A DNA stretch of 56,174 nucleotides, counting the filler. It is 7 parts of 7 records of this genome, joined end to end, with 100 filler letters (N's around TTAATTAATTAA, not from the genome) between each part and the next. Parts side by side here need not be neighbours in the genome. Positions count along the whole stretch, not along the records: positions 44,044 to 50,459 come from SRR2962707_5604; 6 more parts are not named here. One strand, given 5' to 3'. The position numbers and the translations under genes are program-made. Every line of letters begins with the position of its first letter. The first letter of the stretch is position 1. Below the pieces are notes generated by a model that was not told the DNA's origin, ran no database searches, and was given only the letters and a program-made list of their open reading frames with translations. This document shows positions 1-53,800 of this stretch, one piece after another.

Positions 1-571
<571 letters not shown>

Positions 572-586
572 TACCCAGGAGTCCCG

Positions 587-3803: not shown

Positions 3804-3861
3804 GGGTTATCTCCTTTGAGTCACTTCCGTTGGGGTACGAAAGTCACTTTATTCGTCACCG

Positions 3862-3899
3862 CTTAACCTTCCCTGAATGGAATCTTAACCCATTGTTAA
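3862..3899 (-). promoter_or_regulatory. Four direct repeats at 11-bp period; BqsR/OmpR-type autoregulatory box
   Basis: Minus strand reads TTAAC-N6-TTAAG-N6-TTCAG-N6-TTAAG. A TAAAGT -10-like hexamer (3846-3851) follows, upstream of the PepSY operon. Confidence 0.75.
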
Positions 3900-4008
3900 G
3901 ACCGTCAACCCCCTTTACCCTCTTGCAAAATCCGCCACATCCGGTCACTTTGAGCCTTTTCCGGCAGCCCCGCCGCTGTCCAGACCGTCAAAGAACAAGA
4001 GCGATTCC

Positions 4009-4869: not shown

Positions 4870-4876
4870 CGCGCCT

Positions 4877-4927
4877 GTCGCGGTCCTTTCCTGTTATGGA
4901 GAGGCTCCTTATGGAGAGGACCGCGAC
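4877..4927. terminator. Inverted repeat between convergent tesB and thiolase; likely bidirectional terminator
   Basis: GTCGCGGTCCTTTCC ... GGAGAGGACCGCGAC arms; TTATGGAGAGG occurs twice within the element. Confidence 0.6.
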
Positions 4928-4938
4928 GTCTTTCCTTA

Positions 4939-6225: not shown

Positions 6226-6446
6226 AGTCAAATCCTCCACAATGGCGTTTCCGCCAAGATTAACAGATGAGCGCAGTCTATCGTTCCGTTGACGCGCCTC
6301 ATTGGCTACGGCGCCCCTGGCGTTTCCCAGGCGGGTCAATCCGCGTGTCACGGACGGGTGATTCAATACGCAGCCAACAGTGACCCGCAAGCGTGTTCCG
6401 CACCGAGGGTCGACATTCCGTACATCGCACGGCGAAGGACAGGATC

Positions 6447-7865: not shown

Positions 7866-7874
7866 TCCAATACC

Positions 7875-7907
7875 GGACCGGGGGCTTCCCCGGTCCCTCC
7901 TCTTTTT
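7875..7907 (+). terminator. Rho-independent terminator
   Basis: GGACCGGGG-GCTT-CCCCGGTCC stem followed closely by TCTTTTT. Confidence 0.75.
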
Positions 7908-7939
7908 ACCTGCCTTGGAGAGATACATTCGGAGGCCGC

Positions 7940-7975
7940 TGTAGGAGCGCAATCTGTGGGAGCCAGCCTGCTGGC
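7940..7975. repeat. REP-like element at contig end
   Basis: TGTAGGAGCG and TGTGGGAGCCAGCCTGCTGGC (GCCAGC/GCTGGC palindrome) resemble gammaproteobacterial GTAG/GTGG REPs. The contig breaks here. Confidence 0.55.
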
Positions 7976-8075
7976 NNNNNNNNNNNNNNNNNNNNNNNNN
8001 NNNNNNNNNNNNNNNNNNNTTAATTAATTAANNNNNNNNNNNNNNNNNNNNNNNNNNNNNNNNNNNNNNNNNNNN
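7976..8075. other. Artificial contig-joining spacer
   Basis: 44 N + TTAATTAATTAA (stops in six frames) + 44 N. Confidence 0.99.
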
Positions 8076-16801: not shown

Positions 16802-16901
16802 NNNNNNNNNNNNNNNNNNNNNNNNNNNNNNNNNNNNNNNNNNNNTTAATTAATTAANNNNNNNNNNNNNNNNNNNNNNNNNNNNNNNNNNNNNNNNNNN
16901 N
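16802..16901. other. Artificial contig-joining spacer
   Basis: 44 N + TTAATTAATTAA + 44 N. Confidence 0.99.
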
Positions 16902-22124: not shown

Positions 22125-22224
22125 NNNNNNNNNNNNNNNNNNNNNNNNNNNNNNNNNNNNNNNNNNNNTTAATTAATTAANNNNNNNNNNNNNNNNNNNN
22201 NNNNNNNNNNNNNNNNNNNNNNNN
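22125..22224. other. Artificial contig-joining spacer
   Basis: 44 N + TTAATTAATTAA + 44 N. Confidence 0.99.
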
Positions 22225-30471: not shown

Positions 30472-30571
30472 NNNNNNNNNNNNNNNNNNNNNNNNNNNNN
30501 NNNNNNNNNNNNNNNTTAATTAATTAANNNNNNNNNNNNNNNNNNNNNNNNNNNNNNNNNNNNNNNNNNNN
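30472..30571. other. Artificial contig-joining spacer
   Basis: 44 N + TTAATTAATTAA + 44 N. Confidence 0.99.
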
Positions 30572-30886
30572 TCTCTCTCTCTCTCGCTGCTCTCTCTCTC
30601 TGGCTCTGCCTCTGTCTTATAAGTAGGTCCAACATGGTTTCGTTTGCTCCAACAAACGTGACTGCGTTTTTGAAAAGTTTCGAAAGGTGACTTTTACGTC
30701 CTGGAGCGTCGGCATTGACGGGCAGTTCAATTGCTCGATCTGCTGTCAGCGCTCGTCACCTCCCTGTTTTTTTATTGGCCCTTCTTTTTCTTTCTCTCAT
30801 CTCCGTCTGTTTGTCTGCCGATCTATCTGTCTCTGTTATTTGAGAAATTTCCTTCGTGCGGATTGACTTTTTCATGACGAGCGGTG

Positions 30887-32903
30887 ATGGTGAAAGTAGC
30901 ACCGCTTCAGCGACCGGATTCAAGCACGGGAGCTGGGCCTTTTTCGTCCGTGAGCGGAGGAGGCGATGCCATAAGCAACGACAACGAAGTTGATGAAGCA
31001 GCCGATGCTGATGATTCGGCTGGAGAGGAGGAGCTTCTCCTACCTCCACTTCCGTCCATCAACCCTCATACGGGCAAGAAGAAGATCAGGAAAAATCTCA
31101 TGGACATCTACGCGGTTGTTCGCTTTGAAGGAGAGCCAGCTTTCGCGGGTCGACGGACTTCGACAATCAAACATGCAGGCAGGAATCACATCGTGGCTGG
31201 TGCGGACGAACTCCAGAAGCAAACAATTCGAGTGCCTGCGCATGTGATTGGTAGTGGCCAAGCAACGATCAGTGTGTTCGATGATGATTTCTTCAGTGGC
31301 GATGATCTCATTGGCAGTTGGACAGGGAATCTGGTCCATATTTTGAAAGACGACTGCGACCTTCCGCGGTCGAGGTGGAAGCGCAATGATGACGGCAGTG
31401 TGGTGTTTCGCTTTGACTTATCGCATGGACCAAATGCTGCGAAAGCTGGCAAAGTGGATGTCACTATTTCTCGAGAAAACTCCGAGCACCGTGATGTGAG
31501 CGATGGCCAAGACACGGGAGCAAAAACGGCAGCATCAAAGGCGAAATCCCGCCCAGGGGCTCTGGTGCTGACTTTCAAGAAATTTGTCGCCCTTCGAGAC
31601 GTCGCGGCAATCACCAACTTCCACAACAACATTGACCTTGCACCGCTATTTTACTCGAGCATTGCTTTATTTGTGTATTACACAATTGGGGTGCTGTTCT
31701 ATAGCCAGGTGCCCCGGACACTTCGCACAAATACCACATCCATTGCCACTGACTATTCATGTAGTGGGGGCACCTTGGCTAGTACATTTCGTGAAGTGGC
31801 GTCCAGTTCGCCGACGGATGATATGCTCGCATCGTGCGATCAGAGCTTGTTCACCGCCAGCAACGAATCGGCTGCTTGCTCTGGCTTTGCTGATGCATTT
31901 TACTTCACCACGGCCACCTTAACGACAGTGGGCTATGGAGATATGAGCCCGAAGGGGGCCGACCCAGGAAATGTGTTGTTTGCCGCAATTTTCGCTTTTG
32001 TTGGGGTAGCATTCATTGGTGTGGGCCTGGGCGTGATAGCAGGATTTGTCATGGACAAACAAGCAGCAGCTTCTCAGGCTTTGAAAGAATCAGGAGGTTC
32101 TCCACAGAAAACTGCTGTAAGAAAGCGTTGCGAAAAACAGTTTGCGTGCTGTTTTTCAAATAGCGGGCAGGCAATTTGCAAAGCCTTGGCAGCGATGATA
32201 GTAGCCCTTGTCGTTGGTATGATATTTTACTACATTGAACTCGTGTGGGGGCAGGGAATTGACCCCACTGAGCTCGCACAGCATTCTGAACACCCTGAGA
32301 GCATGTTCGTAAAGGTTCTTTATTTTGCAACCATCACGAGCACAACAATTGGGTGCGTCACATGAGACTTTGATTGTGACTGAATTGCCCGGCCTTGGTA
32401 CCGTCGCTTGTGTCGAGTCCCTAGCCCCCGAGTATAACGGTTTCCTTTTCTTGCTTTTTGTGGCTAGATATGGCGACGAAGCGCCAAGATCTATTGCCGG
32501 CAGGCTTGTGGGGTCGATATACATGCTCTTTGCAGTGACCGTGTTTGGGTTTGCACTGTCCTCTTTGGCAGACATTCCGCTCGAAAAGCGGCGCTTAAAG
32601 TTGGAGGAGAAAGTCACAACACAGTACGGAAGCAGCCTGTCCCCTGTGGAACTCACCAATATATTGCGAAGCGCGAACCCGCAGGCTGTGAACGATGCAG
32701 AACTTGACAGTGTTGCAAAAGCGGAATTCGTTGTGGCAATGCTGCTCAAGCTCAACAAATTAAAACCCGACCAGATTGCCATGATTGAAGAACAATTTCA
32801 TCGCCTTGATGTGAATCGAAGCGGCTCGCTGACAATCGAAGATGTCACTGAGATTACACCCAACTTCGAAGACATGTCGTCCAGCAGCAGTGATGCTGAG
32901 TGA
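30887..32903 (+). CDS. Two-pore-domain K+ channel (TPK/K2P-like) with N-terminal C2 domain and C-terminal EF-hand; 2 exons
   Basis: Pore 1 FYFTTATLTTVGYGDMSP. Pore 2 LYFATITSTTIG|YGDEAP is split by intron 32353-32467. EF-hand QFHRLDVNRSGSLTIED. C2-like MDIYAVV...TISVFDDDFFSGDDLIG. Confidence 0.9.
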
Positions 32904-33324: not shown

Positions 33325-36300
33325 TCAACTTGCGTACATTCCCCGTGGTGCATCCGAATCTTTGACTTTCTCTTCGTCAAGATTAGTCACATTCCCTGGC
33401 CGCCACCCCGGCTGTTGCATCAATGCTTTCTGTTGAGCCAGAATGTAGTCGACATTGCGCGGGCACTTGACAACATCCGTTCGTTGACTGAGCTCAGACC
33501 TGCGCGGTTGCAAATTAGCAAGTCACTTTTCAGCTCACCGTGGCGATACCGGTAGCATGGAGCCGCAAAATGACCAAGCTCGTATACGCAAATGGTCTAC
33601 ACATGGTAACGCACATGCCGATCCCATTGAAGCATTCCACTGCAAACTGATAGCTGCTTTCAGGTTGCAGCTTCTCGATCTTAGCTCCAATTGAGTTGTG
33701 TGGCCCTTCAAACACAAGCTCAGCCTCTGTCGCATCGGCGTCAGTCACTGTTGTGGAGTCTGGGATGTCAAACTTGAAAACTCGGAAGCCAAGAATAGGC
33801 AAACCTTTTGAATTCCATACGCCACCAAACAGACCGAATTTACACTTGCTTTTAGACAAAGGAGAAAGCAATTGTCAATGGTAACAAAATCAACAGCAAT
33901 GGAATACTAACACACCTCCATCCCCAGGCTTTTCCCAGCGCAATACGCACGACCGTGGAGTCACCTCGCTCACGTCAATTTTACCCATTTGGTCAGGTGT
34001 GGTAGCCGTTGCCTTGTCATGCAAAAGCAAACATATTAGTTCATTTCGAAAAGGCACATCAACACACCGAAGTTCACAGAATGCCGCTCGACTTTGCGTA
34101 CAGTGAAGAAAGGAGGTGACACTGGAGACCAATCAGAAAAACCGACTGAATTCAGGGCTCTGACCCGGAAGTTGTACATATGTTCAGGCCTGCCAATGTC
34201 AAACGTCAGATCAACGTGAAACGTCAAAAGTTGATGGTCGGCGCACCCTGCGACAACCATGAAGGCTCAACGAACTCGCCAATCGCGCGAACTTTGTTCT
34301 CAAAATGGTGTATGTACCTCAAGTTTTCCACAGTTTTGAAGAAACGCTGGGCGCAGTGCTCAGCGACATTAGATTGCAATGATGACACTGAGCCGACCAC
34401 GTTACTGACTTCGTTTGGTTCATCCAACTGTTTTTTCAATGCTGTGTCCGACTGATTAATCCTTTGCTCCGAAGTAGAATCGCTGCTGTCAGTTTTGTCG
34501 TCGCCAATAGTTTTATTGTCAAAAGTTGGCTGGGAACGCGAGTCATTTAACGCACCTGCACTCGCACCAGAGACGGTTGCGTCATCCCCAAGCATAACAC
34601 CCGCACGATATTCTTTGAGATGTATTTCAAGAAGATGAGCCACAATTTCTGCTCGGAGCATTCGCTGCACTACGTCTAGCGTAAGCTTTTGCTCTTTTGC
34701 CTGAGTATTCCCTTCCGCAATATTTCTCTCAGTTGTGTTTGCTGCGTGTGCACTTTCCATACCTTTGCTAGGGTCAACTCCTTGCAAATCCACCATGCCG
34801 TGACCTTGTTCGTCGTCAGGAACCATGAGGCTAGCAGACAAGCGCTTGCGTAGCTGCTTTGTTGGGAGCTTTGCAACTGCGCGCATAAAAGCCTTTGCGA
34901 CAACTGCTTCCGCTTCTGACTTGCGGTTCGCTGACAAAGCACCTGATGTGTGCGGCGGTTCCTGCTTCGAATCATCGCCTTTGTCCACCTCGGCCTGACT
35001 GCTCGTGGTGCCGCAGTTTGAGGACTCCGTGCCACTGACGTTGCTTCTTTGATCTCTCGTTACCTCTTTGGGGTGTCTTGCAGTGATGCGGACGTTGACC
35101 TCAGGCTGACTATCAGCGGTACCTTTTTGTGCCAACTTAGCTGATGCAGGTTCATCGGTGCTTAACTCTCGTTGTACTTCTTTGGATTCTTCGGCGTTGT
35201 TGCTTGACTCGAATCGAATCGAAGAAGATGAAGCCACTCGCTTTGCTTGACCCAGTTCCTGACTCGAGACTGCCTTTGGGGTCAGTTCCTCAACCGAAAA
35301 CTGCCCAAGCACTTCCCATTCGGATACACGCGTGTCTTCCAAAATCGCCAGCTCAAACGCTGTAACCGGTTCCCCGTTGTCGTAAGAGGGTGGCGCCCAG
35401 CACAGAGATAATGCTGTACTGAGGGAAGGACCGCCCAGTTGAGGTGGCAAGCAAGGCTCCGGAGCTGTGGGAACTGTTCGAAACCCAGGTGCTGCATTTG
35501 CCAGCGAGTCTTCAGACCAACCGCAAGCATTTTTGCAACGTATGCGGAAGAAATGACGCGTTCCAGGACGGAAGCCTTTGAAAACTGTATGCGTCGTGTG
35601 TGATGGAATGAGCCGGCCACGCAGCGATGACAAAGAGCAAACTTCATCTGGTTCTATTGCTTCATACACAAACACTTCGTCGATGCGACTGCCTCTCTCG
35701 TCTGGTAGCTCCCACGATACATGGAGACTCTTCGTGGTTGTATCGTGCAACACAACAGGTTTCGGACGCTTTGGCACCGTTGCCTTGGTATGAGTAGCTG
35801 CTGACGCGATGCTCCATTTTGAGCGTCCGACATGGTTAAAGGCACGAACCTATCCACAAATAGGTGTCATGTGCTTGGATGTTGCCTGTCATTGCAAAGT
35901 AAAAGAAGCGCAGCATCGTCACACTGACCTGGAACTGGAATGTTTGCCCTGCCTTGAGCCCTTCTACGCGATGAACACACTCCTTGCCGGTGGCGTCCGG
36001 CGGCATTCCAAATTCTTCATCCAACATTAGCTGCCTAGCCAGTTCATCCTCCATGCGACGATGCATGAAGGTCATTGCAGTTCTGATTCGAGCTTTGACT
36101 CTAGCTTTTCGGGCTGCAGAGAAACGTTCAGCCTATGATTCCAACCAGCATGAGTGTAATCAAATCATCAATAATGCACCGCTCCATCGAAGCGTCACAC
36201 CTGACCATCAATCGGTGGACAAACACGAACAATACAGGTCACTGACGGAGAGGTCGACGACTACACATGCAGACAAACCTTGTCCATTTCGGCTTCGTGG

Positions 36301-39300
36301 CGTTTGCGCTCGTTTTCAAACATTCGCTCAACACGGGTTTCTTGCACTAAACGACGCTCGTCAGCTCGCTTTTGGCACTTTTTTTTGTCTAAGTATATTG
36401 GTGGACAGTCCTCAAACGTCCTGAACAGGCCGCCACGAATCCGCATTTCGTAGAATCGCACGTTGGCGCCGTAGCCATCAGGTTCAGTCCAAAAGATATC
36501 CATAAAAGTTGTGGATATCTCGAGAATCTATGTGTGGCAACATTCGGTGCAAGCCAGCAACAAACATCAGGTCTTGAAGCCAATATGCCAACTGTCGCGC
36601 AAATAGATGGAGGTATTGCAAGAAGAGAGCAGACTATGCACAGCAAATGACACAGACACCGCGCAATGGCAAACGAACTTTGGGCTGTTCAATTCTAGCC
36701 GGAACAGCGGGTGGCATGCGCTGCTGCACTGGCTCAGAGAACGTGCCTACTCCCATTGCCGATTCTGCAGCAACAACATACTGGTACACACTCCCTGGTT
36801 TCAAATCAGTTACAAGAAGGTGTCTACCGTCGCGCAAGTTTCCAGCAACGTCGACAACTCGAAGGTTCCCCCTGCACAAGTATCGTTTCAAGCACAGGAA
36901 TGAGTCCAATCAAACTTGAAATTTCAAGAACACTGCGCGCGCGTTGCTTGTTGCGGCAAGCACGTACCACGGAAACTCAAGCAGTGCATTCCCATCCCCA
37001 ACTGCTTGTTTACGAATCTTGCGACGCAGGACAAAATATTGCATCACTGGCGCACCGAATGAAATGGGCAAGTTCCATGCCAGTTCCATCCGCACTGTAT
37101 GTTCAAATATATCAGTGCGAACTTTTCGAAAAACAACCTCTTGTGGTGGATCGGGCGGGCGCGGTACTAAGCGCCAAGTGCGAGCGGTACCATCACCTGA
37201 GGCTGAGAGAAGGTCGATTTGTTGCTGATTCAAGGTGATATGCGTGACCACGTCTGTGTGCCCGCGAATAACTTGGATTAGGGCGCCAACAAAACTGTCC
37301 CAGATGCGAATTGTCTGATCGTCGCTGGCAGTCGCAAGTGTGCGCGAGTCAGCGAAAAAAGATACACATCGAACAACGCCTGAATGCGCATCGTCAATAC
37401 TTCGCAACAGAAGCCCTGATGATGTTTCCCACAACTTTACTGCGCAGTCATCTCCTCCCGTGGCAAGAGTTCGGCCGTTGGGCGAGATGCTGCAACAATT
37501 AATGCCGTCGGTGTGACCAAAAAAGCCGTGTGTTGGAATGCGGACTTCAAACGTGCGGGCTGCACCCCCGTGCTCGGCAGGATCAAGTGCAGCCACGCAA
37601 GCTGGTCGCTGAGCCATACACTCCTCACGAGCTTTTTTTCGTGCAGCACGCAACTCTTCAACAACGAAACTGTTCCGTTCATGCGCAAGGACTGGTTCAG
37701 GGTCGAACTCAAGCATCTCTCCGCGTTGCTTTGCAGCGACGATTTCCTCCGCGTACCTTGACGGATGCGCGATGCATCAGGGTTGAGCAGAGTGGTTCAA
37801 TAGTGTGCTGCTTACATCTGTCAGTGCAATACCGCACACTCAGTTGTGACAGGCAACGTACTCCACTAGCCAGGCACCGCGTGCAATAGCCACGCGAGCT
37901 TCAAACTCCGCTTTGACAACAGGATCATTGTCAATCCGTTGAACTGCCGTCTCGAGCGCCTTCCTTGCAGCAATCTCGGCACGTCGCTCGGCCTCAGCTT
38001 GCAATTGACATACAACCAGCCCACACCAGCCGTTCTCGCGTGCTTTATTACCGCACCAAAGCGTTTTGGAGTCAAGAAATTTATCATCTTCCTTCAGAGC
38101 CTGAATAGCGCGCTGGAACTCCATCAATGTTGCTGGATGCCGACCAGTCACCCCATCTCCGCCAGACTGCAGGTACCTGACACAAGAAAAGGCAAGGCAA
38201 TTAGTACGCAAAGCAAAGATACAACAACGATTGCACCGCCACTTGGCAAAACATACTCGTCGAGAGCTGCAGCAAGTTCTGCATCCAATTTGAGCTTCTT
38301 TACATCCTTTCGACGCTGTCGCTCTAACCGCGCTAATCGTTCCTCCTCTTTTTTCTTTCGCTTGGCTTCTTTTTCTGCCTCCCGCTCTCGGCGCATAAGC
38401 TCCAACTCTTGCTCCAAGCGAGTCAATTTGGAAAATTTCTCTTCCTCCTTTGCAGTTTTCTCGGCAGCATGATCAACCCGTGTTACTTCTTGCTGTTTTA
38501 CTTTGATAATCTGGAGCCATTCGCACAGACAGGGGCGACGTGGTCTGAGTCAACCGCTCTCAGCTCCCATCGAAAAGCATATTCGAATCAAACGCATTGC
38601 GCATACCTGCTCATCAATATGTGCACGCCAATCTGTGATAGGCGGCCTAATGATGGAAAACCGGCTGCAGGTTGGTTTTAGGTACGCAACTGCGTACGAA
38701 GTTTGATCTCCAACGTTGTGTCCTTCACTTTTATCCACAAGGAACCTTGATTCAGGTTTGGGCTTGCCATGATGCCACCATGGAGGCTCTGGGAAACACC
38801 CTTGGCATTGCGTGCACTCATTTTCAAGAGTGACAAGCTGTTCATATCTTGCGCGGAATCGTGAAGATGACAGATAAATCAGCGTCACAAGTCAAGGATA
38901 AAAAAGTTGGATTTCAAGTCAAATATCAGCCACAGACTCGTAAAATACACAACATGCATCGTTATTTTGAACTCACTGCCAATAGTGGTTGTTGGCGACG
39001 CCTGCGCGAACGTTGGGAACATGCAAATAGGGCACTTGTTCTGCCTCATCCAATGCAAGCTCGCGGGCTTGAATTTGCTCCGCCAGTTGCCGCTGACCCA
39101 CCAAATCCAACGCATTACTGTGGTCTTGACGCTTCGTATGGCCACGAGTTTTTGAATCTTCCATCGCTCCATCTTCCGGACGTTCTCCCAGCGCCCCGTT
39201 GGAGTTAGAGTCGGCATTTCGAGGCAGCTCAACTTCCCTTGCTATTCGTTCCATTTGGGCTTTCAGCTCTTGTTGCAACACTAGGTCTTTTGCAATTGCC

Positions 39301-42300
39301 TCACGGTCCTTTTCTTTTTGTTCCAGCAACAATTGCTCTGCTTTTGCAGCACGATCTCGCTTCACCTGGTCAACAGAACAACCCTGGGTCAGCAGAGTGT
39401 TCACACAACAGTAGCGTCCCTCGACACACCACCAAAACAATCGAACCTTTGCAGACACCAGCTCAGCATACTTTTTTTGAAGACTTTTCAGTATTTGCTT
39501 GGTGCGACGTTTTTGCATTTGATCGCGTTGCGCAGCGCCGGCACGTTTCATCATGGCAACGAGTTCGACCGCAACGTCACCAACGGCACTCGCAGCGTCG
39601 GACACCGCATCGGTGACAGCGTCGGCCCTGTCGGCCGCGATGGAAAGCAATTCTTCACGTTGGTGCTTTAGTCTATTTCGGGAGACCGAAAAAAAAAAAA
39701 AAAAACATCATGGCGGTACGATTGGGGCTCAATTTTCCAAGCATAGAAGGCACGGAAGTACACGTACAAAGATGACAATTTTGGCTGAGGCTTGGTACCG
39801 CTCCCAACATATTGATCATCCGGTAAAAGCCCGTCCTTTACAAACTCGCGGGCAAAACAACGTTCGTAAAAAGACTGTGGAAGCCCGTAGTGTGCGTAAA
39901 ACTCGTTCATAGGCTTCTCTTGCTTCGTCCCTGCGTCCAGAGTCGACGAAGCCATTTCGAGAATCGCCTCTAAGTTGGGAAACACTTGCTGTTCTGCTTC
40001 TGGCGAGTGTGTAGATGAGAGGCTAAGTCCAAGCTCCTTTTCCTGCCCACGCCACCGGCGATTGGCCTGTAGTGTATGAGAAAACATTCAAAACCATTGG
40101 TGCTGTTTGTACAAATTGCGTCACGAGCAAATGCCCAACACCATCGAGTCTTTGTTAAAGATGAATCAAAACAAACCTTCAGCTGCAAAAATTCACGTGC
40201 GGCCATCCGAAGGCCAAACGCGACATCCCATTGAAAAATTTGTCGATCCGAGTAGCCTCCAACCGAGAATATTTGTGTTCCGTCTAACGACCAGCAACAG
40301 CTATTCACAGTGTCCAAATGCCCCCGAAAAACAAACAGGGTTCGGTATGGCGGGCGAGCTGCCCACAATCGAACTGTGCGATCAGCTGAAGAAGACGCCA
40401 ACAACATCGCATTTGGTGAGAGCGCCACCTGTCGTTTCAAAAATCAATAAATCAATCAATCACGATTTTGAGCAATGGGATACAATTATGTGTCAACTAA
40501 GCAAGTTTACTTCAGTGAAAGATTTTGAGGAGTGTTACCTGAGTAACAGCTCCACCGTGCCCAGTAAGCGTGTCTAATACTTTTCCAGAAGTAAGGCCCC
40601 AGACTTTGATTGTACCATCCGCAGACCAGGAAAGCACCCGAAATTCGTCGTGCTCATCAAGGTCAGTCTCCGGACTGTCATTTTCATTCGGTCGCAATTT
40701 CTTAGCCGATGCGTTGGCCTGTTGGGTTTCAGCACGGCCAGTCCGACGATCTTGCTCTGTCGATGTCACGACCTCCTCCAACTCTTCATCTGAAGAAGAC
40801 AGGGATGACTCCTCCGACGAGGAAGACGACAACGTCTCGTCACTATTAAAGTCCTCATCGCTGTCAATATCGCCATCGCCATCCGCTTCGTTGGTCGTTG
40901 ACACTGTTGGTTTCTTCAAAAATTGACGGCTCGACCTCACTCCGGTTGGCTCGTCATCGACAACGTCTGGAGGCATGCTGACTGCGATTGACGGGACCGG
41001 CAAAAATAAACAGCCGTTCACAGGACCAATGTGACCGTTCACTTGGTCCATTTGCTGCTGTGAAGCGCGAGCAGCATTGGTTTGACCGGCTTCAAAACCT
41101 TTGCGCGCAAACACTTGAATTTGAGCTCCCGACTTTAAATTCCAAAGAACAATGCGATTCTCAGCATCGCACGTCGCAAAGCAACGCTCGTGCTTTGTCC
41201 CATTTGCATCCTTGAGCCTACAGAGTAAATTAAGAGGTTGGCTTGAGGAAACGCGATTCATGCCGGTCACGGCAATCAAGAGAAAAGTTTACCAGCAATT
41301 TCGCCGAAATTGAACGTACGGATGTTCAAAATACTGAACCCAGTTAACAGATCGTTGACTGCAAGTATAGTTGCGTAGTGTGTTTGCCGTTTGGTCGTAA
41401 ATAGTGAGGCTGTGAATGCGATTGTAGTGGTAGTTGAAGCCATCGCCCTGCTGCCACTCTCGTAAGCGCAATTCGCGATTCAAAACGTGACGCATTGCAA
41501 TTGCACTTGGAAAGTATGTCGAGGGCCCTCGCACAAACAAAAAGCAATCACCAACCACTTCCAACTAGGCACGGAAGTCATCACAAATAATAGCACATGC
41601 ATGATCACAAGTGGTTACTCTACATTGCAAACGACCTCATCGAACATTGCTTGGTTTGCAGCAGTGAGCAAGGTCGCACCGGAAGCTCTAAAACGCCCTT
41701 TGAATTTCGGGCGGCGTGAAACTTTAGCCATAAAAACCCTGGCGAGCTTCCCCCTTTCACAACTTTGCCCATGTAGCGCACGTTCGCAACAGCCTTGGCG
41801 ACCGGGCGGAATTGAATCCGACGGTCTGAATCAAGTACCACTTCATCGAGGAATACGTTAAAGCGTAGTCCAAGCAACTGTGGAAGGCAGAGGTAAGACG
41901 GACGGAGATATGACGCATATCAAAGATGAAGTTGTCTGAAAAAAAACCCTGACGTTTAATCCCCCTCTTACCTGATCCCTCATCTCCTTTTCCAGCCGAA
42001 ACTCACTTTGGGCGTCCAGGAATCGGGGCCAGCATGTGTCGGCACAAGTATCCGTGCGATGGCTGCGCTTGCCCACCACCTACGCGCACAAAGAGAGTTC
42101 AAGGCACAGACTTGAATTGCAGTTGACGTCAATTGTCCAATCATTGTTGGCACTGGTGCAAAAGCCCCAACAACATCTCGCAGAGGCCCCCGTCTAGCAA
42201 CCTTGTTTGTGCAGGTGGCGCTCTTATCATCAACTTCGATCCGAATGCAACAAGTCATTCTCCGGGCAAGACGAACTCGCCCAACTGTCAAAGTGAGTCG

Positions 42301-43859: not shown

Positions 43860-43943
43860 CTGACTCGCTCTCACACTCTCACTCACACTCACCCACCTGC
43901 TCACTCACTCACTCGCACTCACTCACACTCACACTCACACTCA
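43860..43943. repeat. (ACTC)n/(CACACT)n microsatellite at contig end
   Basis: Same satellite as the GTGA tracts, opposite orientation. Confidence 0.9.
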
Positions 43944-44043
43944 NNNNNNNNNNNNNNNNNNNNNNNNNNNNNNNNNNNNNNNNNNNNTTAATTAATTAAN
44001 NNNNNNNNNNNNNNNNNNNNNNNNNNNNNNNNNNNNNNNNNNN
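43944..44043. other. Artificial contig-joining spacer
   Basis: 44 N + TTAATTAATTAA + 44 N. Confidence 0.99.
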
Positions 44044-44093
44044 CACAAAAAAAAAAAACAAGAAAAAAAAAAACGGATTGCAGTCTCACGCAC

Positions 44094-44640
44094 GTAGCAT
44101 TGAAGTAGTCGAGCTTGCGGTCAACAAAATTGCACACGTCAATGGCAGAAGCCACAGACAATTCAAACAAATCCGGGAACAAACTGGTTGCGACAAGTCC
44201 ACATGGGTAGAACTGTGTGTAGTTTTGAGTAAGCAACTCATCCGCGTCTGTGTTGCCGCTAGACTCGGGTGGTGATTCCAGTGTTGCATTGATGGTGCAC
44301 AAGATGAGCTCTTTGCCCTGGTCGATCGCCCCTTGGGTGCCTTGGTACTGTTGCTGCACAAAGCTGTTTTTGTACCGGGCACGGTTCTGTTCATAACCTT
44401 CGATCTTGTAAAATATTTGCACTGGGGTGAAGCAGGTTTCCTCCACAAAGAAATTAAGCTCGCAAAACCCGCTGGAATCTGGAACACAAGGTTGCTCATC
44501 TGCAGCAAGTTCGCCATTGAAGTACAGTGCTTCAGCATACAGCGCAGCTGGACCAGCCCAATAAAGAGTCTTGGCAAGAAGCAGGCAGACTGCCGCCACA
44601 AGAACAAATAGCAGCAGCCATACAGGCACTGTCCACGTTT
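44094..44640 (-). CDS. CDC50/LEM3 domain (TM1 plus first half of exoplasmic domain), truncated at an intron by the contig end
   Basis: TM VWLLLFVLVAAVCLLLA, then CELNFFV...PVQIFYKIEGYEQNRARYKNSFVQQQYQG...YPCGLVATSLFPDLF. Compare the CDC50 consensus PVYxYYxLxNFYQNHRRYVxS..xQLxG and PCGLIAxSxFNDTF. Donor GTGCGT at 44093. Confidence 0.85.
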
Positions 44641-47600
44641 TGTTGCACTGGGATGCACAGTGCGTTACTTCCATAAGATCTGCCCCAACATCACGACACT
44701 TGCCAGATTGGGCCTTTCGCTCCGTCTCAGCTGCGAGAGAAAAATGCAAAGGATGTGCGACTGGGCTGGGATCCTCCTCGGCGTCGGGGGATTGCTCGTA
44801 AGAAGCAACAGTCAACAACCGGCGGTGCTCATGAACAGTTTCTACTGGCTTCCTGGGCGCCCCTGGCTGGTTGGGCGTCATGGGCACAGCACCGGTTGGC
44901 ACATCATGAGAAGTCAGCGGTGTCACTTTGTGGCGACGATGGTGCCCAGACAAGTGTTTCACCATAGAGGCAAGCAGGGTATCGAGAACGCTGAAACTGA
45001 CGCCTGACGATGACCGCACTTCACCTCCACGCACGCGCAAACTTTTGAGCAAGACGGGTTCGACCCGCCCACCAACACCTGCGATTGCAGCAGCGGCTTC
45101 GGCGGTGGCCTGCTTCTCGACAGCACTGCGGGCAACGTCAGCTTCGGCACCTTCGCCAGCTGCTCCCTGCTTGGCAGCAAGCAAACGTGCCTCGTCAATG
45201 AGCGCGACTCGAGCAAGCTCACCTTCAAGAACCTGTAGTCACAAAACAACAGTGCGGATGCCGACACAGTTGAGCAAGATATCGCGTGCACACCACGCGC
45301 TTGCTGGACCAATGTCGCTCGCTGAAAGCAATGTCAATTTTTACCAGTTGCTCGCGTGTTGGAATAAAGGCAAGAATAGTTCGAATCAGGGTGTCCCACA
45401 CCAGACAGCCAATCAGCACCATGAACTGGCACATCCAGAAAAAACTGTTTCCGAGCAGGGTTAATGTGACGGTGTACGACTGGTACCTTGCAAGAAAGCA
45501 GCAATCACAAGTTGATGTATTACTAGGCCAAAAAACTCCCACAATTGTTAAAAAGGAAAGCATTGACACGCGCGCTGATAGAGAACTCACGAAACAGAAA
45601 GACTGGATCCAGCCAAGACATATATCAGTAAAAAGAACCCAAACACTGTTGCATAGACGATGGCGTGCACAAAAGTCCATGTGTGCTGGCGCATCATCAC
45701 GGCCACATTGAGTGTCAAGATGAGCGAGAAGTAGAGCATTGAACCAAGGCTGTATCTGCAATTGTGTGCGCAATAAACCGAAAAGTTAGCCACTGAACCT
45801 GCGTGGGTCTGCGGCTAGCACTGCAAGCCGATAACGAACAAGCACAAACAGGCGCTCACGCGGACGCACAGATCACCAAGTCCAAAGCGCTCCAAAATAC
45901 CGACAAATGCCCAACACACGTAGAATATGGTAATTCCATACCTGCGAATGAGTACATGGCACATTGAGCGTGAGTTGAATGTCGGGTATGTTGCAAATCA
46001 AACTGAAAGGGACGATATACACACCACAACATCCCTATCACCATCACAACGAAAGATGCAACAGTGAGGTCGGAATTGGTGCGGCTGACGTGGTATAGCT
46101 GCGGAAAGCGCAGGATTGCATCTGCCTCGATGTCACGATCAAGCCAGCCGACCACTGCAATCGGCAGCACCAGAATAACATCGAAGAGCGCCCCGAGAAT
46201 CGCGGGGATGGGCTGCGTGCCCGTAAACCCGTTGTACCAGGAGAAGATAAACTGCACAGCAGTGATAACCATTGGCTTGAAAAAGCAATACCTAACAAAC
46301 CGAAATAGATATCGTGAGCATACAAAACTTGAATGTAGCGCAAGCACACCCAACCACATGCTAGTACAGCAAGGAAATACACGTGGGGACCAAATGATAC
46401 GTACTTGATTACAATCGCGAGACGTCGATAGTTGCCACGGCCGTGGTATTGCAAAATACGGTACAAGTGCTGGAACTCGTTTATGGCGATGTCACTAATG
46501 TTGGCTGCCTGAAGCCCCTCCCGACCAAAAATACCAATGCCAACGTCGGCGCGCTGAATCATACCGACATCGTTGGCACCATCACCAATGGCCAAAGTAG
46601 TAGGTTTGGGAACCATGCCATCTTTAACAAGTCCAACAAGCTCCGCTTTTTGAAGCGGTGATACGCGGCAAGCTAGCACAGTACTACAGCTCAACAGAAT
46701 GTCACGAAGAATGTCTTGGAGGGGCCCATCGTCCATTGCAATTGAGAGGAATTTTCCTGTTATCACTACCGCCACAGATGCCCCACCTACGACTTGCTTT
46801 TGACCAGCCTTGTGCTGTTGCTCGAATCGCTGGATGCGAAGCTCGCGAATTCGGGCCTGTGCCTGAGGATCCGACACCACAGCAGGAGTGTTGTGGACTC
46901 GTAGACAGGGAAACTTTGCGCTTAATTCTTGGCATGTCAACGTCAACTGGTGAGCGGCCGCTTCGCGATCGCTTTCCAAGGTGCTAGCTTGATTATCGTC
47001 GGAGTTCTGGTGGCGCGGTCGCCGCGATGCAGGGCCACCCACGTGCTCTGGCTTTGGTTGGCCCTTGGGTACACTTGAATTTGCGGGTGTCTCGTTCATC
47101 GCCGAGTCAACACGAGCGGCCGTGTCTGCCTTGGATGAGCGCGGACTTGCGGCGTCGATGTCGTCATCGTCAGACCCATCACCGTCTCCGTCGGATTCTT
47201 CGTCTTCCTCCCTCTCATGCAGGGCATCACGCAACTCCTTCAACACTTGCCTCACAGAAGCCGCGGAGACACTTTCGTCTTCGGTGCCTTGGTCCGACAA
47301 GGTACTTCCGTCGAGCGCGAGCACGAGGTCGGAATTGACAAGTGTCCGACTGCTGAACCCGATGCTGATTGCAGTTTCGAGCTTGTCCCCGGTCAATACC
47401 CACAGACGAATTCCCATAGCTCGAAGTGACCGGAGTGTGTCAGGGACATTATCCTGCAACTTGTCCTCAATAGCAGTGACTGCCACGACTTGTAGCTCCT
47501 ACAGCAAACCAGCAGTCGATTATCATGCCAACGTCCTCAGTGGCAGCATTGAAAGTGGCATTTAAAGTCGCCTGGAAACGTACAGATTCAACCAGTGCAG

Positions 47601-50137
47601 CGGCCTTGGCATTGGCATCCTTTTTCGCGGGCCCAGCTGGAGTAGCGGCGGCAATGCGTTGAAGCGATTTCCACTCAGCAAAATCTTCGGATGATAAATG
47701 GCGCGTGGCAAGGACGAGCGTTCGGAGCCCTTCTTCTGCAAAAGTCGTTACATGGTGCCGCAGCTGCGCCAAGCGAGTTGCGTCGTCTTTTACTCTCTCC
47801 AGAATGATGTTGTCCGCACCTTTACAAAATCTATATTCCAAGCAAAAGGTGAAAGTAGGTCAAACCCATGATGTATCAAGCGGACCCAGCGCAGATCATA
47901 GTCATGCGAGTGCGTACACAGTGGCGGAACCGTCATTTTCAGCCAATATGACCGACATCCGCTTGCGAGTGCTGGTGAAAGCGTGCACGCCAACTACTTT
48001 CAATTGTTTCGTATCAGGGGCTGCATCGCCAGGCATGTTGACTTGACAAGTTGCACTGAGCATGCCACGATGCAACAGTGAAACACCTGTCGCAGCAGCA
48101 GCCTAATCGCATGCACACGCGCCACGAACACAACAACCGAATCAATCCAACGCGATCACCAACACAGGATCGGGAGACAACTCCCTCACGACAGAAAGCA
48201 GCGCAGTGCACACCTTCACAAGGGCTTCTTCGTCCGGGCTTTCGCATTCAAAGTCAATGGACCCGTCCGCATTTTTCACTGGATACACAGTGTTGGCAGC
48301 GCTCATTATGGTCAAGGCTTCTGCTAATCCCTGCGCAAAGGCTGGTCCGCGATCGTCCGCCACGTTTGCTACTTGTTCCATGACGTTGAACGAATCAGCA
48401 TCTAAACTTTCCAGGAGCAGCGGCTGGGAGTCATGGCCGCCATCATCGTGTTGGCCCCGGGGAAAAACAATCATCTTTTGAAGGACCATTTCGTTCTTGG
48501 TGAGAGTCCCAGTTTTGTCGGAAAAAATGAAGTCCACCATCCCAATTTCTTGACACACTCGCAAGTTTTTCACTTGGGGTCGGCGGGCATCTTCGTCGTT
48601 GCTCTTGCGCAAACCTGGGTCATGGCTTATTAGGCAGCCTTGCAGAATGTTCACAGTCTCCATTACGATGTATCTGCAATGAAGCCAAACACAGCGTGAC
48701 AGAAGATCGCGTGCAGCCAGATGAGGCAGCAGCTAATAACAACAATGACAGTTTGAGGCAAACGTACACAGCAATGGGTATGACATTCTGGTAGTATGTT
48801 TGGTAAGTGAAAAGTTTTCCCAGCCACGAAGGAAACCCTTCGATGCAAGGCTCTCCAGGTTCGGGAACGCCCAAGCCAGCAAAGGCAATGACGGATGTCA
48901 CAACGACGGCCACATTAAGCACGGCTGCAAGTTGCATGATACGGTTGAGTGCGCGATCTATGCTGAACAGTTTCGACGGCTCGTCTACGAGATTTAGCAT
49001 CACACGGCTTTGCATTCCGGTGTAAACAGCAACTCCGAGCAGCCAGCTTGTGTTTTGCAGCGAAGTGCTGCGAAGCATGACGTTGTCCATGTAGAGCGCA
49101 CACGAATATTCGGGTACGTGCGCTGGTGCATGTGTCCCAGACTCTAAATCGCCTTCGACCGCCTCGACCGCCTCGACGGAATTTCTTGGGCCAACGCGCA
49201 CCGCACCGCTGAAGGTGGTGATGCTGGGACCAGGCGGTTCCGCCTCAATTCGAATCGAGGACTTTGGGTTTGAAAATAGCTCCAAAAACGCCATGGGGTG
49301 GCGATCACCGTAGTCATAATCGTACGATTCTGCTGGGTTGCCTTTTTTCTTGCCATGTCCGGCGCTGTCGGTGGCAACGTTCTTTCCGTCATTGCATAGA
49401 GTTTCATCCGAGTAGGAAGGCACCAGGCAAGGGTCGGCAAACGCAGCTACAAGCGCTGGAGCGACCGAACCAACCTTTCGGTTCGTTTCTCCGTCGAGCT
49501 CAGTTGTTGTGACAAAGAAAAGGCCAAAGGGGTCACTACAGCAGATGGGTACCATATCGCACGGTGCGACCTCTGTCTTGTGAAGCAGGATAAGATCCCC
49601 GACTTTCACATCGCCCCATTCTGCGTCAACGAACCTTGGGCTCCGCGATTCGGTGTCGGCGCCGGCCCTGAAAATACGAGTTTGTTTCGTATTGATCTCT
49701 CGGTCGCTCCGCCGCCGCTGGCAATCGGTAATGGCCAACACCGCAATACTGTAGACCATCACTGCAATGAGAGTCGCACCCATACCCCATGGGCCATCGG
49801 TTTGCCAGCAGGCGGTCTCTGTACCGATCACCATGACGGCAAAAATGTAAGAAAAATACACGTTCGCGATTTTCTGAAACTGCAAAGCCAGAGCGCGAGG
49901 GAGAAAATCCCACCAAGTGTACTCTGCCGTTGCCACGCTGTTCGGTGGGAAAGGGCCTCCGCTGACATCATCGCAAGCGACTCCGAGCGTTGCCTGAGCC
50001 GTGTCGCTCCCTGCTGGCAGGGCAGTTTCACCGGCCCGTAATGTAAACGAGCGGCTCGGAAGTTCGATTTCCTTCTTCCGACAGCAGCCCTTCGTCCGCT
50101 TCTTCTTTTTATCATTCGTCCCCTGGTCGTCGGACAT
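44094..50137 (-). CDS. P4-type ATPase (phospholipid flippase) apparently fused to a C-terminal CDC50/LEM3 domain; 3'-partial
   Basis: P4 motifs NSVATAEYTWWDFLP, LDGETN, NVIPIAVY, FSDKTGTLTKNEM, ESPDEEALV, FTSTRKRMSV, KGADNII, EGLRTL, TAIEDKLQ, LTGDKLETA, CRVSPLQK, AIGDGAND. TM5-TM10 exons traced. Intron 45233-45344 joins TM10 in frame to an exon with CDC50 motifs. Confidence 0.88.
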
Positions 50138-50392
50138 TCTGCACGTCCCCTGCACTCGAATGCCCGTCTATTCGAGCGCAGCGACTTGGGAATGCAAAAC
50201 AGGGCTGTTCCAGCGGCAACAGATCCACGCGCGCACACACACAGAAGCCAGACAGAAAGAGGCAGAGACTGAGGAGACACGCACACACGCGCGTGCGCGG
50301 ATGATGCCCCCTGCCTGCTGGCGGGGGCAATGCGCTGCCTACGACATACACTGCACCCCCACCGTCCGAAAAGTGGCCGAGTAAATTTCGAG

Positions 50393-50459
50393 AGAAGGAA
50401 GAAAGGAAGGCAGGAAGGCAGGAAGGAAGGCAGAAGGAAGGAAGGAAGGAAGGAAGGAA
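50393..50459. repeat. (GAAG)n microsatellite at contig end
   Basis: Seen directly, upstream of the flippase gene. Confidence 0.9.
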
Positions 50460-50559
50460 NNNNNNNNNNNNNNNNNNNNNNNNNNNNNNNNNNNNNNNNN
50501 NNNTTAATTAATTAANNNNNNNNNNNNNNNNNNNNNNNNNNNNNNNNNNNNNNNNNNNN
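50460..50559. other. Artificial contig-joining spacer
   Basis: 44 N + TTAATTAATTAA + 44 N. Confidence 0.99.
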
Positions 50560-50621
50560 CACACACACACACACACACAGACAGAGCGAGCGAGAGCGAG
50601 AGTGAGAGTGCGTGTGAGAGA
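50560..50621. repeat. (CA)n then GA-rich microsatellite at contig start
   Basis: Seen directly. Confidence 0.9.
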
Positions 50622-50830
50622 GCGGTTGTGAAGCGAAAGTTTACCGCTGCGGGGACAAAGGACGAAAAAAAGAAGCTGGAGAAAGAAGCCGAGTCCGCAC
50701 TGGAGGGTTTGATGCGCCTACTCCCGCTCTCATTGTGCGTTGTTGCGGCGACACGGGTCCGTCCAGCAGCAGTGAACCCCCAACACCTTCGCGTCCAGTC
50801 CAACGAGTAGAGGAGCGTGTCGGGCCACGG

Positions 50831-53800
50831 ATGGACGGTGAAGCAATTGCTGCCCCTTCTTCCACAACAACGTCTTCTTCGACTCCGTTCCGGGCCAGGG
50901 GCACAAGTGTGAGTGCCAGTGCCAGTGCCAGTGCTAGTGCGAGTGTAGGGGCTGGAGCTCCCTCGGCACAAGAGCCGGACAGTGCACCTGTGTTTAAACA
51001 GCACTTGCAGCGAGACGCAGACTGGGTGCAAAGTCTACGCTGTTCGAGCGAAGACTCGCCTGAAGGCGCTTCTTCTGGGTCTGGCCCTGCCTCACGGCGG
51101 CGACCTGCTAACGACCCGAGAAATTTTCTGTCGTCTGTGGACCGGCAGCTTCTGAAGGAAACTGGGCGCAAAGGGAAGCGCGTGGAGGCGAGCAAGCCTT
51201 CAAAGTCGTGGGGAGAGTCCATTCTGGAGGATTCTGCAATTGCTAGTGCGCCACCGCAACCCATAATTGAGCAAAAGGCAAACACGAAAGCCGAGCGAAA
51301 AGAAGAAGAACAAAAACATCAGCAAGAGCAAGAAGAGCCGCAGCGCCAGCCAGTTGTCCAGCAGCAAAAAAGAGACACACTGGGCCAGGAATTGCCACCG
51401 GAAGCGAGTCTAAAGGAGAACAAGCCGCGCACTCAAGGAAAGCGCGAGGAAGAACGTGCGCCTACGGTCCGTGCTGCACAGCTTTCTGGAGGGGTCGAAA
51501 TCCGCGACCACGAAGGCACTGAGGTAGGATCTGTCCCTGGACCGAGCGACCACAGTGCGCAAGCACCAGCAGGATCGAGCGACGACCGATTCGCTCTGCG
51601 TGGCGAAAGCCCACGAAACAGCTTTGATCAAATTCCACAAGCCCAAGAAATCGGTGTTGCTACCGACACGAAGGAAGCGAGCATTGGAGGCAGCGAGGAC
51701 CCGCACGTTGGTTCAGAGAGCGCTCCAAGTGGGGCAAAAATGCCGGAAGGGCGTGCCTCCACGCCCCGTGCGCTGGAAGAATTCGACGAGGAGGAGTACC
51801 AGTCATTTGCTCAGTCGATGGATGACGAGAGACAGCAAAGATCCTCACAGCGAAAAAGTCTTTTTGCAACTAGCGCACTGAAAAACAGTCAAGGCCGGGA
51901 CGGTGTGGCTAACGTTATGACATCAACACCAACCCCGAGCAAAGGTGGTGCTGGCGGTGTTGGTGATGTCAGAAACAGCAGCCGCAGCAAAGCCGATCTT
52001 GGCGGCAAGAGTGTCCTTGACGGCGTCGAGCTCCTTGGGCCTAGTCCCAGAGGGGACTCACGCGCATCAAGAAACCTCACCTACGCATCCCACAGTGGGG
52101 GCAACATTTACGACAGTGCCATCAAAGTGCTCAGCGGTGGCTCTTCATTTGCTGTGTCGCGGCAGTTGCAAGCTGAGCACCTTCGCCCAAATGCCACCTC
52201 GTCAGCTGCAAGCTCGATTCGCGACGGTCCAGTCCCAACATTCTGCTCCACACCATTGGATAGTGGGCGCGAACAAGGCGCTCCGAAAGTGATGTTGACC
52301 ACGTCGCCTCCCCAGCCGCGCGGCAATAACATCGGAGACGTTGGACGTGCCTCAAATATGAAGTCATCGTTTCACCCGATGTCACAGCTTACCTCTGCGT
52401 CAGAATTTTCGTTTTCGGCGCGTACCTCTGACACGCAATCATCGTCCCCGCGTTCTCCATTGGGCCAGTCACCCTCGTCCACTGCTCAGTCGTCAAGTAG
52501 CAAATCATATAGCCCTCCCCCATCAGCCGACACACTGTTTCAACCTCCACCATTCTTTCAAGCTCAGCAGGCAGCTCTTGCTGACCGGAAGTCAGCTGCT
52601 TCACACGCCAAACGCGCAGCTGCAGTAGCGGAAGCGAACGGCACTCCGATTGACAGCTCATCGTCATCTGGTGCGATCAATTTGATGCGGTCGCTTGAAA
52701 ACATTCGTTCTTTGCAACACGCAAGTAGCAAGCCACGCCGGGCTGCACGTCCTCTCATGTCTAGTGGTGCTCAGCAAAACGAAAGTCAGCGCGCTAACAA
52801 CACGATTTCTGGAAACGGTGACAAACGAATGATGCCAAGCCAAGGCCGCCCTACAATCAGTGGAACACCCGAAGGAGTGAATCTGCACCCACACAGCCAT
52901 TCTACTGACCAGCCTCTGAGTATGAGCAAGCAGGCTTCCGAGGTGGTGCGGCAGTCACGAGTGGGGAGGGGCAATGGCCCGCAGTACCCAAACCGGCGAC
53001 AAGCAGCTGCAGAGAACCGAAAGTTCAACCAACCTTTCGTGGCACCACACTTCGCTAAGGCAGCACAAGCGCGCCTTGCCGCAGACGCCAATGCAGCTCT
53101 CACAACTCCCAAGGCAGACTACGATCACATTGGGGACGGAGCTGACGATAGTTATAATCGCGGTCTTCAACCTAGTGTGCCGGTGACAAGAATGGACCCA
53201 GATCGTGATGTGGGGATGGGCCGAGATCCTGTTGGGCGCGGCCTTTTCAATCGTAGCTTGCGCTTGGCAGATGAGAATCTGAAGGGCGATCGCCCCCGTG
53301 ATCCCCGCGACCGACACCCTGGAAGTCCCCGGCGTGGGATTGCACTTCGAACTGATCCACATGGGCCTGCGTTTGCGCACGACCCTTCCACGTACGAGTC
53401 GCCTGCGCAGCGGCACTATCGAAAGCAGGTATGTTACTGTTCAACGATCGAACGATTGGACGGTGTTTGCCTCTTTAGTTTGTGAATGCGCGTGAATGTC
53501 GTGTGCTAACTTCAAGGACGTTTGCTTAACAGGGATCTTTCGTTGAGGAGCGAAGAAACGCAAGCCCCGCTGCAGCAACCTCCGCATCAACAGCACCGCG
53601 ATTAACTTCGCCCAGGGCTGATAAGTCCAAACAACGAAACGAGTACGATGCAGACCACGCTCTGGGCGATTCACTGGACTCTGCTCCAGCGCACTCAGCA
53701 AGTCGCAACACACGAAACAATAACACTCCGCACAGGGGAACCAGAGATACTGCCAGTAGTGGTGGAAGAGACAAAATGCGCGACATCGAGGCACTTCACA

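Follow-up and report, generated by a model that had tools for sequence, protein, structure and literature searches.

To our knowledge, all the P4A flippases that have been characterised are heterodimers encoded by two genes, in which a P4-ATPase (the α subunit) is accompanied by a CDC50 protein (the β subunit); exit of P4A enzymes from the endoplasmic reticulum (ER), as well as their localisation and activity, depends on the right CDC50 partner. Yeast Drs2p-Cdc50p, human ATP8A1-CDC50A, ATP11C-CDC50A and Dnf1-Lem3 are enzymes of this type. The subject of this report is a gene on the minus strand of a 56,174-nucleotide stretch of DNA (the window), within contig SRR2962707_5604, that has the same two modules and the same catalytic motifs as these heterodimers, and in which α and β lie in one reading frame, whereas the heterodimers are encoded by two genes. 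Other differences accompany this one: the regulatory tail that follows the last ATPase helix would be an internal loop anchored at both ends, while in the heterodimers it ends freely; the CDC50 part has diverged strongly, with no obvious N-terminal signature; and transmembrane helix 4 (TM4) carries PIAV instead of the usual PISL.

Two other groups of P4-ATPases can be compared with this gene. The P4-ATPase-guanylate cyclase chimeras (P4GC) of alveolates and some stramenopiles likewise consist of a P4A-type ATPase that is extended after TM10, within one polypeptide, by another membrane module (PMC13466520, PMC8982854). These chimeras append a cyclase, whereas the gene described here appends CDC50 itself, and P4GC still requires a separately encoded CDC50 for localisation (PMC13466520). 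The P4B ATPases (Neo1, ATP9A/B) resemble the fusion in being independent of a separately encoded β subunit (PMC8514546); P4B enzymes, however, are without CDC50 altogether, whereas the fusion keeps it and tethers it.

Both subunits lie in one reading frame

The gene starts at an ATG at 50137, with an in-frame stop upstream at 50170, and ten of its exons can be seen. The initial annotation, prepared by a model from the letters of the window, had proposed that the P4-ATPase continues in frame into its CDC50 subunit across a 112-bp phase-0 intron, and the sequence bears this out. The exon that encodes TM10 ends with ...FFWMCQFMVLIGCLVWDTLIRTILAFIPTREQL, followed by GTAAAA; intron 9 (45233-45344, GTAAAA...CTACAG, phase 0) forms the junction between the ATPase and the CDC50 exon, and exon 10 starts at 45232 with VLEGELARVALIDEARLLAAKQ. 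From there the frame remains open for 379 codons (about 380 had been announced), to about 44094, where a GT donor follows at 44093-44092. The stop-to-stop frame of exon 10 begins at 45238, and the TGA at 45239-45241 lies, as described earlier, 7-9 bp upstream of the exon start; the open frame starts right at the acceptor. Retention of intron 9 would lead to a stop at 45225-45227, with 45 unrelated residues before it.

The only public run that contains the fusion stretch is one that we call X1, which has no library type on record and whose RNA nature is a guess; it was treated as complementary DNA (cDNA) because its contig is without the nine canonical introns. This single contig of 6719 letters covers 50381 to 44092 in ten blocks, and nine of nine GT-AG introns are absent from it, including intron 9, which is skipped with 142 letters on the shorter side; the eight blocks listed show 0 mismatches and 0 gaps with respect to the genome. 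The 5' untranslated region (UTR) extends over 50138-50381, as far as this contig reaches. Junction-spanning reads had been suggested as a way of checking the proposed join, and the junction is present in this contig, from which intron 9 is missing along with the other eight introns. Most of the checks proposed in the initial annotation were carried out, and none spoke against the fusion.

Once spliced, the exons form a single open reading frame of 1724 codons, in which no stop occurs up to the final base; the other two frames are broken into pieces that do not exceed 191 codons. The product from ATG 50137 has 1714 residues. A contig that runs across two genes does not by itself prove that they form one transcript. 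Nevertheless, since the splice is present and no stop occurs before CDC50, any messenger RNA (mRNA) that uses the intron-9 splice must be translated into CDC50, and a single mature mRNA carries both modules in the same reading frame. The natural α-β fusion is therefore real at the gene level, and we consider it highly probable that this one gene encodes a single-chain P4A-type flippase, formed by an ATPase with ten helices, a tail and a complete CDC50.

The X1 contig leaves the genome at 44092, within the start of the next intron (44044-44093), which is cut by the contig end, and continues for 1332 letters that should contain the remaining CDC50 and the 3' UTR. The first 30 of these letters, read by hand and in frame, give ...YAESQGFHED, which matches YAESVGFREDQ in the next CDC50 exon of a related locus (L001, described below); nowhere else in the window do these 30 letters find a match.

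The P4-ATPase module

It is well established that P-type ATPases are defined by the catalytic motifs DKTGT, DGET (in the A-domain), TGDK and GDGxND. The spliced product contains DGET215, DKTGT509, TGDK790 and GDGAND1059, and the ATPase part looks catalytically intact as far as its motifs can tell. Pfam recognises PhoLip_ATPase_N (PF16209, 44.7 bits, cut-off 29) and PhoLip_ATPase_C (PF16212, 66.8 and 33.6 bits on separate exons, cut-off 28.3), and Hydrolase is also matched on the upstream ATPase exons. Compared with chains of solved structure, exon 1 is closest to Drs2 (2.7e-28), ATP8A1 (2.1e-26) and ATP11C (6e-25), followed by Neo1 (6.2e-16) and ATP9A (5e-12); these PDB E-values, which refer to exon 1 only, would place the ATPase in the P4A subclass, closer to Drs2/ATP8/ATP11/Dnf than to Neo1/ATP9.

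Exon 1 (48768-50137) holds the start codon, PhoLip_ATPase_N (E 1.1e-11), DGET and the TM1-TM4 region, as seen from the Pfam match, the motifs and the hydropathy. The hydropathy scan has its peaks in the expected positions, with TM1 and TM2 not separated by a scan of this simplicity. TM4 (residues ~452-466) is split by intron 1 and reads PIAVY..ME. The usual motif of P4-ATPases in this helix is PISLYVSIE (PISL), and the PIAVY variant may bear on substrate choice.

Exon 2 (48214-48673), delimited by splice joints in the X1 contig, bears the DKTGT phosphorylation motif (residue 509), and exons 3 (47918-48102, joints 47830/47918 and 48101/48213) and 4 (47584-47830, also from X1 joints) encode parts of the N-domain with the frame kept. 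Exon 5 (46405-47498) contains TGDK, an acidic insert, GDGAND and the start of PhoLip_ATPase_C, according to Hydrolase, PF16212 and the motifs. The insert (approximately residues 830-990) is long and of low complexity, and in the cytosolic domains it separates TGDK from GDGAND; a second X1 contig matches 43 letters within it, at 47362-47404, with lower identity, which is probably due to repeat content.

Downstream of this insert, exon 6 (46025-46291) encodes the TM5-TM6 region of PhoLip_ATPase_C (PF16212 E 3.4e-18, X1 joints). Exon 7 (45870-45941), of only 72 nt, is placed by the joints 45755/45870 and 45939/46023, which account for the 70 intervening contig letters, and exon 8 (45591-45755) covers the TM8-TM9 region, as indicated by the X1 contig and hydropathy. 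Exon 9 (45345-45486), which ends in ...AFIPTREQL, contains TM10 and aligns with TM10 and the post-TM10 proline of other P4-ATPases.

The CDC50 module

The initial annotation had pointed to one membrane helix followed by CDC50 motifs in the last exon, and had proposed the PF03381 profile as a check. The profile matches residues 252-360 of exon 10 (44153-44479) with an E-value of 1.3e-14 and 54.8 bits (cut-off 28.6), over positions 37-128 of 286; what follows position 128 would lie past the contig end. The two motifs in question, FYKIEGYEQNRARY and YPCGLVATSLFPDLF, fall within this match. The solved chains that exon 10 matches in the PDB sequences are those of Cdc50/Lem3/CDC50A only, the best being 6lcp_B (4.5e-06).

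A single hydrophobic helix, the eleventh of the chain and the first of CDC50, occupies residues 200-225 of exon 10 (44558-44635), with a hydropathy peak of 2.94 at residues 1530-1563 of the product and an AlphaFold2 helix at residues 201-225 of the exon, in a block whose predicted local distance difference test score (pLDDT) is 93-96. The first part of the ectodomain follows (44094-44557), up to the GT donor. An alignment of 21 sequences shows invariant columns at C257, Y275, N283, S290, Q295, P343, G345 and L346. Exon 10 thus has what characterises the CDC50/LEM3 family, that is, an N-terminal membrane helix and then a luminal ectodomain in which certain Cys, Pro and Gly positions are conserved.

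The arrangement in a second species

The three best HMMER matches of exon 10 are fragments called on unannotated contigs: P0001, which is 86% identical over exon-10 residues 17-379; P0002, which corresponds to the CDC50 part; and P0003, which corresponds to the tail. An earlier scan of metagenomes found nothing, and a scan with a tight alignment found a 5279-bp contig, OJIS01001954.1 (locus L001), that carries both P0002 and P0003. When the spliced window protein is compared with L001 by tblastn, residues 1072-1714 are recovered as seven collinear segments on one strand, with identities of 77-91% in the PhoLip_ATPase_C exons, 78% in the TM10 exon, 85% in the tail block, 57% in the pre-helix segment plus CDC50 helix, and 34% in the ectodomain (this last value across an unspliced intron). 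Pfam finds PhoLip_ATPase_C on three exons of L001 and CDC50 on two; its later exons match PF03381 positions 165-230, and a terminal hydrophobic exon, which ends in a stop, weakly matches (E ~1) a CDC50 profile built from seven full-length proteins.

The order of the modules is therefore the same in L001, and no intron interrupts the junction there: one segment (residues 1286-1348) crosses the site of the window's intron 9 in one frame. The exon that spans the site reads ...AFIPTREQLVLEKELARVALIDETEAR and then gtaagt, and the next exon, which has a stop upstream in its own frame, opens right after an AG and continues into the conserved tail block with the frame kept. The introns of L001 include one at 1714-1898, which is 16 codons past the site of intron 9, and one at 2436-2596, which falls in the pre-helix region. 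In these two species the introns are placed differently, yet TM10, tail and CDC50 are in one frame in both.

The two genes have diverged for long enough to saturate synonymous sites: the proportion of synonymous differences (pS) is 0.69-0.83 and that of nonsynonymous differences (pN) is 0.16-0.37 in five of five segments, the ratio of the corresponding rates (dN/dS) not being computable in three of the five because of this saturation. The segment that crosses the junction comprises 61 codons and is 80% identical and ungapped. These patterns show that purifying selection has conserved the arrangement and the tail in at least one further species. Given the same join in L001, and saturated pS together with low pN, a chimeric contig is ruled out and casual read-through becomes very unlikely.

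Another relative, P0024, is a 998-residue uninterrupted frame, derived from DNA or from a transcript, that is 55.5% identical to window residues 16-1073, a region in which the window gene has four introns.

The tail between the two modules

The segment between TM10 and the CDC50 helix had been described at first as a low-complexity linker of about 200 residues. The length is accurate (approximately 195 residues), whereas the description as purely low-complexity is not, given that the linker is modular and contains blocks that are almost invariant in three taxa.

The beginning of exon 10 (45167-45232, VLEGELARVALIDE...) continues the helix that starts after TM10: an alignment of 11 homologues and an AlphaFold2 helix at residues 2-21 indicate that the residues just past the splice prolong the amphipathic helix found in other P4-ATPases after the conserved post-TM10 proline, and in L001 this stretch is contiguous with TM10. 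The likeness of ...PTREQL to the usual post-TM10 helix, also pointed out in the initial annotation, is consistent with this alignment, in which the helix continues past the splice. The first tail segment is identical to P0001 at 31 of 37 positions. Then comes a conserved cytosolic block, VEPVLLKS.RVRGGEVRSS.GVSFSVLDTLLASMV (44960-45064), which includes a basic stretch and GVSFS, is identical to P0001 at 38 of 39 positions and is also conserved in P0003/L001. It is followed by a variable spacer (44756-44959; 50/74 identical to P0001) that is gap-rich in comparison with L001 and is predicted to be disordered (AlphaFold2 pLDDT 33-48). The last element is the cytosolic segment that precedes the CDC50 helix (HPLHFSLA ... 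CRDVGADLMEVTHCASQC, 44645-44755), with 31 of 34 identical residues in P0001. Both conserved blocks of the linker, this segment included, recur in L001. Beyond the linker, identity to P0001 is 24/26 in the CDC50 helix and 136/153 in the ectodomain part.

Reviews describe an autoinhibitory element that binds the N-domain and consists of a basic patch and then GFAFSQ in Drs2, GYAFS in ATP8A1 or AYAFS in ATP8B1. The window protein has a basic stretch and G..FS in the tail after TM10, where the three heterodimeric enzymes have GFAFS, GYAFS and AYAFS; its GVSFS lies ~80 residues after TM10 and shares three of five positions with GFAFS. The post-TM10 tails of the 11 aligned homologues have only the proline and the start of the helix in common with it, with the tail motif in none of the 11, and a sequence search of the tail against the PDB gave nothing at E-values up to 10. 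By analogy, the GVSFS block is probably a candidate autoinhibitory or autoregulatory tail motif of P4A ATPases. Seen in this way, the first half of the linker would be the regulatory tail of the ATPase, and its last part the cytosolic N-terminus of CDC50.

A probable single chain and its alternatives

The order of the elements would thus be: ten ATPase helices, post-TM10 helix, basic GVSFS block, spacer of ~70 residues, pre-helix segment, CDC50 helix 1, luminal ectodomain and helix 2. Since the ATPase ends and CDC50 begins on the cytosolic side of the membrane, the topology would be consistent. In the complexes solved by cryo-electron microscopy (cryo-EM), the CDC50 helices pack beside TM10, and a tether of ~195 residues would therefore be ample for intramolecular assembly. 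We infer that the modules assemble within one uncut chain of 12 helices with flippase activity, in which stoichiometry (1:1) and partner would be fixed, exit from the ER would be independent of a separately encoded CDC50, and the regulatory tail, with GVSFS as its putative regulatory element, would become a loop held at both ends.

Another way of looking at the gene is to suppose that the fused precursor is made and then cut in the variable spacer, in which case the mature enzyme would be an ordinary heterodimer and the fusion would serve co-translation or co-assembly only. The spacer is indeed poorly conserved in P0001 when compared with the adjoining block (50/74 versus 38/39), and its predicted disorder is what would be expected of a cleavable segment, but equally of a tethering one. 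No cleavage motif was identified in it, and a simple flexible tether accounts for these observations just as well; we regard cleavage as unlikely.

It could also be argued that two neighbouring genes are involved and that they produce separate proteins, the ATPase ending through retention of intron 9 and CDC50 starting from an internal promoter and ATG, with the spliced contig representing minor read-through or merged transcripts. Logan contigs can in fact merge overlapping transcripts, and they cannot rank isoforms; the intron-retained frame does meet a stop after 45 residues, and a methionine shared by all three taxa stands just ahead of the CDC50 helix. Nonetheless, the splice is present in the X1 contig and is followed by 379 stop-free codons; L001 has no intron at the site, so that escape through intron retention is unavailable there; and the tail blocks upstream of the internal methionine are near-invariant and under purifying selection, although a free CDC50 started at that residue would not need them. 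No X1 contig covers intron 9, a weak point given that contigs drop rare forms. Taken together, these observations make two separate proteins very improbable.

A third explanation would be an error of assembly, in which a contig wrongly joins a P4-ATPase gene and a CDC50 gene; the contig is short (6.4 kb), it ends in repeats and it belongs to a fragmented, non-axenic assembly, but the same join recurs in two other contigs, one of them spliced and assembled independently and the other from a diverged relative, and an artefact is hardly credible. Finally, the lack of nine canonical introns means that the X1 contig is processed mRNA, a processed retrocopy being a remote alternative explanation for it.

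Several facts have to be set on the other side of the balance when a single uncut chain is preferred. X1 is not recorded as RNA, and contigs cannot reveal transcript ends, the shares of isoforms or rare intron-retaining forms; an mRNA that retained intron 9, with its stop after 45 residues, would give a free ATPase. A methionine located 14 residues before the CDC50 helix is kept in three taxa and might serve as the start of a free CDC50. The rest of the ectodomain, TM2 and the stop, which make up the 3' third of the gene, lie outside the window, and 30 letters of this third have been read. The CDC50 module is very divergent, with 21 proteins at E <=0.001 (HMMER, 1.84 billion representatives), the usual CDC50 N-terminal signature QQ.L.AW.P is not evident in it, and the AlphaFold2 model of exon 10 is poor (mean pLDDT 53.5). 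As for L001, its splice sites come from sequence and not from RNA, and the junction at ~2770/2950 is not cleanly placed.

Search for precedents and significance of the fusion

The initial annotation knew of no described native P4-CDC50 fusion, and within the limits of the searches carried out none appeared in databases or in the literature. A word search with exon 10 for longer proteins found no fused relative among the 8000 candidates scored, and none of the 21 exon-10 matches in the HMMER scan of 1.84 billion representatives exceeds 533 residues. None of 63 P4-ATPase matches lists PF03381 and none of the 63 matches the seven-protein CDC50 profile, while the ESM Atlas returned ordinary CDC50 clusters only. 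A search for long chains (>900 residues) with the CDC50 profile found nine, none of which has P4-ATPase families: in contrast to the window gene, the other domains are unrelated to flippases in all nine (RabGAP-TBC, Ctp1, cellulase, MFS, RCC1 and others), and these proteins look like merged gene models. Because the searches were word-limited and the query is very divergent, the absence of a fusion from the databases is weak evidence. A full-text search of the main text of openly accessible papers found no description of a native P4-ATPase-CDC50 fusion.

It seems reasonably likely, then, that in a small lineage of microbial eukaryotes of which little has been sampled (two taxa at least, probably three) the α and β subunits of a P4A flippase are permanently fused into a 12-helix chain, the first natural one, and that the tail has become a doubly tethered loop, so that regulation and subunit pairing would be unlike those of every flippase studied. 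Neither part is out of the ordinary for its family, P4A ATPase or CDC50; it is the architecture that is unusual, and no mechanism is overturned by it.

The fusion is of interest as evolutionary evidence of the Rosetta-stone type that α and β are obligate partners and do not separate during the transport cycle. It also suggests that selection can maintain the post-TM10 tail even when both of its ends are anchored, which bears on autoinhibition by the tail. After the guanylate-cyclase chimeras, it is the second type of fusion at the C-terminus of a P4-ATPase, and it offers a flippase of fixed stoichiometry on a single plasmid for heterologous expression, reconstitution and cryo-EM.

Source contig and sample context

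The 56-kb window consists of seven contigs chained by artificial N44-TTAATTAATTAA-N44 spacers, of which there are six, all identical (44 N, TTAATTAATTAA, 44 N), at 7976-8075, 16802-16901, 22125-22224, 30472-30571, 43944-44043 and 50460-50559. The stretches that flank the fusion contig are therefore not its genomic neighbours, and adjacency across the spacers is biologically meaningless. Everything reported above for the window gene sits in one contig, 44044-50459 (6416 bp), and since an artificial spacer begins at 44043, the gene stops at the contig end (44044) and not at an internal assembly gap. This contig ends in simple repeats (44044-44076 and 50389-50459), as does the neighbouring one (43900-43943), the repeats comprising an A/T-rich run and GGAAGG-type and CACT-type units; the assembly probably broke within the CDC50 intron because of them.

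The fusion gene comes from a eukaryote whose GT-AG introns are short (those of this gene measure 83-114 nt) and whose G+C content is ~54%. Other contigs give an idea of the sample. The first (1-7975) looks bacterial, with long uninterrupted frames that include a HAMP/HATPase_c histidine kinase (1194-2627) and a thiolase (4939-6444) on the minus strand and a short-chain dehydrogenase (6384-7865) on the plus strand; the assembly probably derives from a mixed sample or from a culture that was not axenic. Rfam gave no match anywhere in the window. The contig that follows the fusion contig has, on the plus strand (50618-53485), an open frame of 955 codons that is rich in Ser, Ala, Pro and Gln and has no Pfam match. 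In the contig at 30572-43943 the open frames look eukaryotic; they encode an ion-channel pore domain on the plus strand (30878-32365) and, on the minus strand, fibronectin type III (34224-35849) and WD40 repeats (36910-37776 and 40512-41288).

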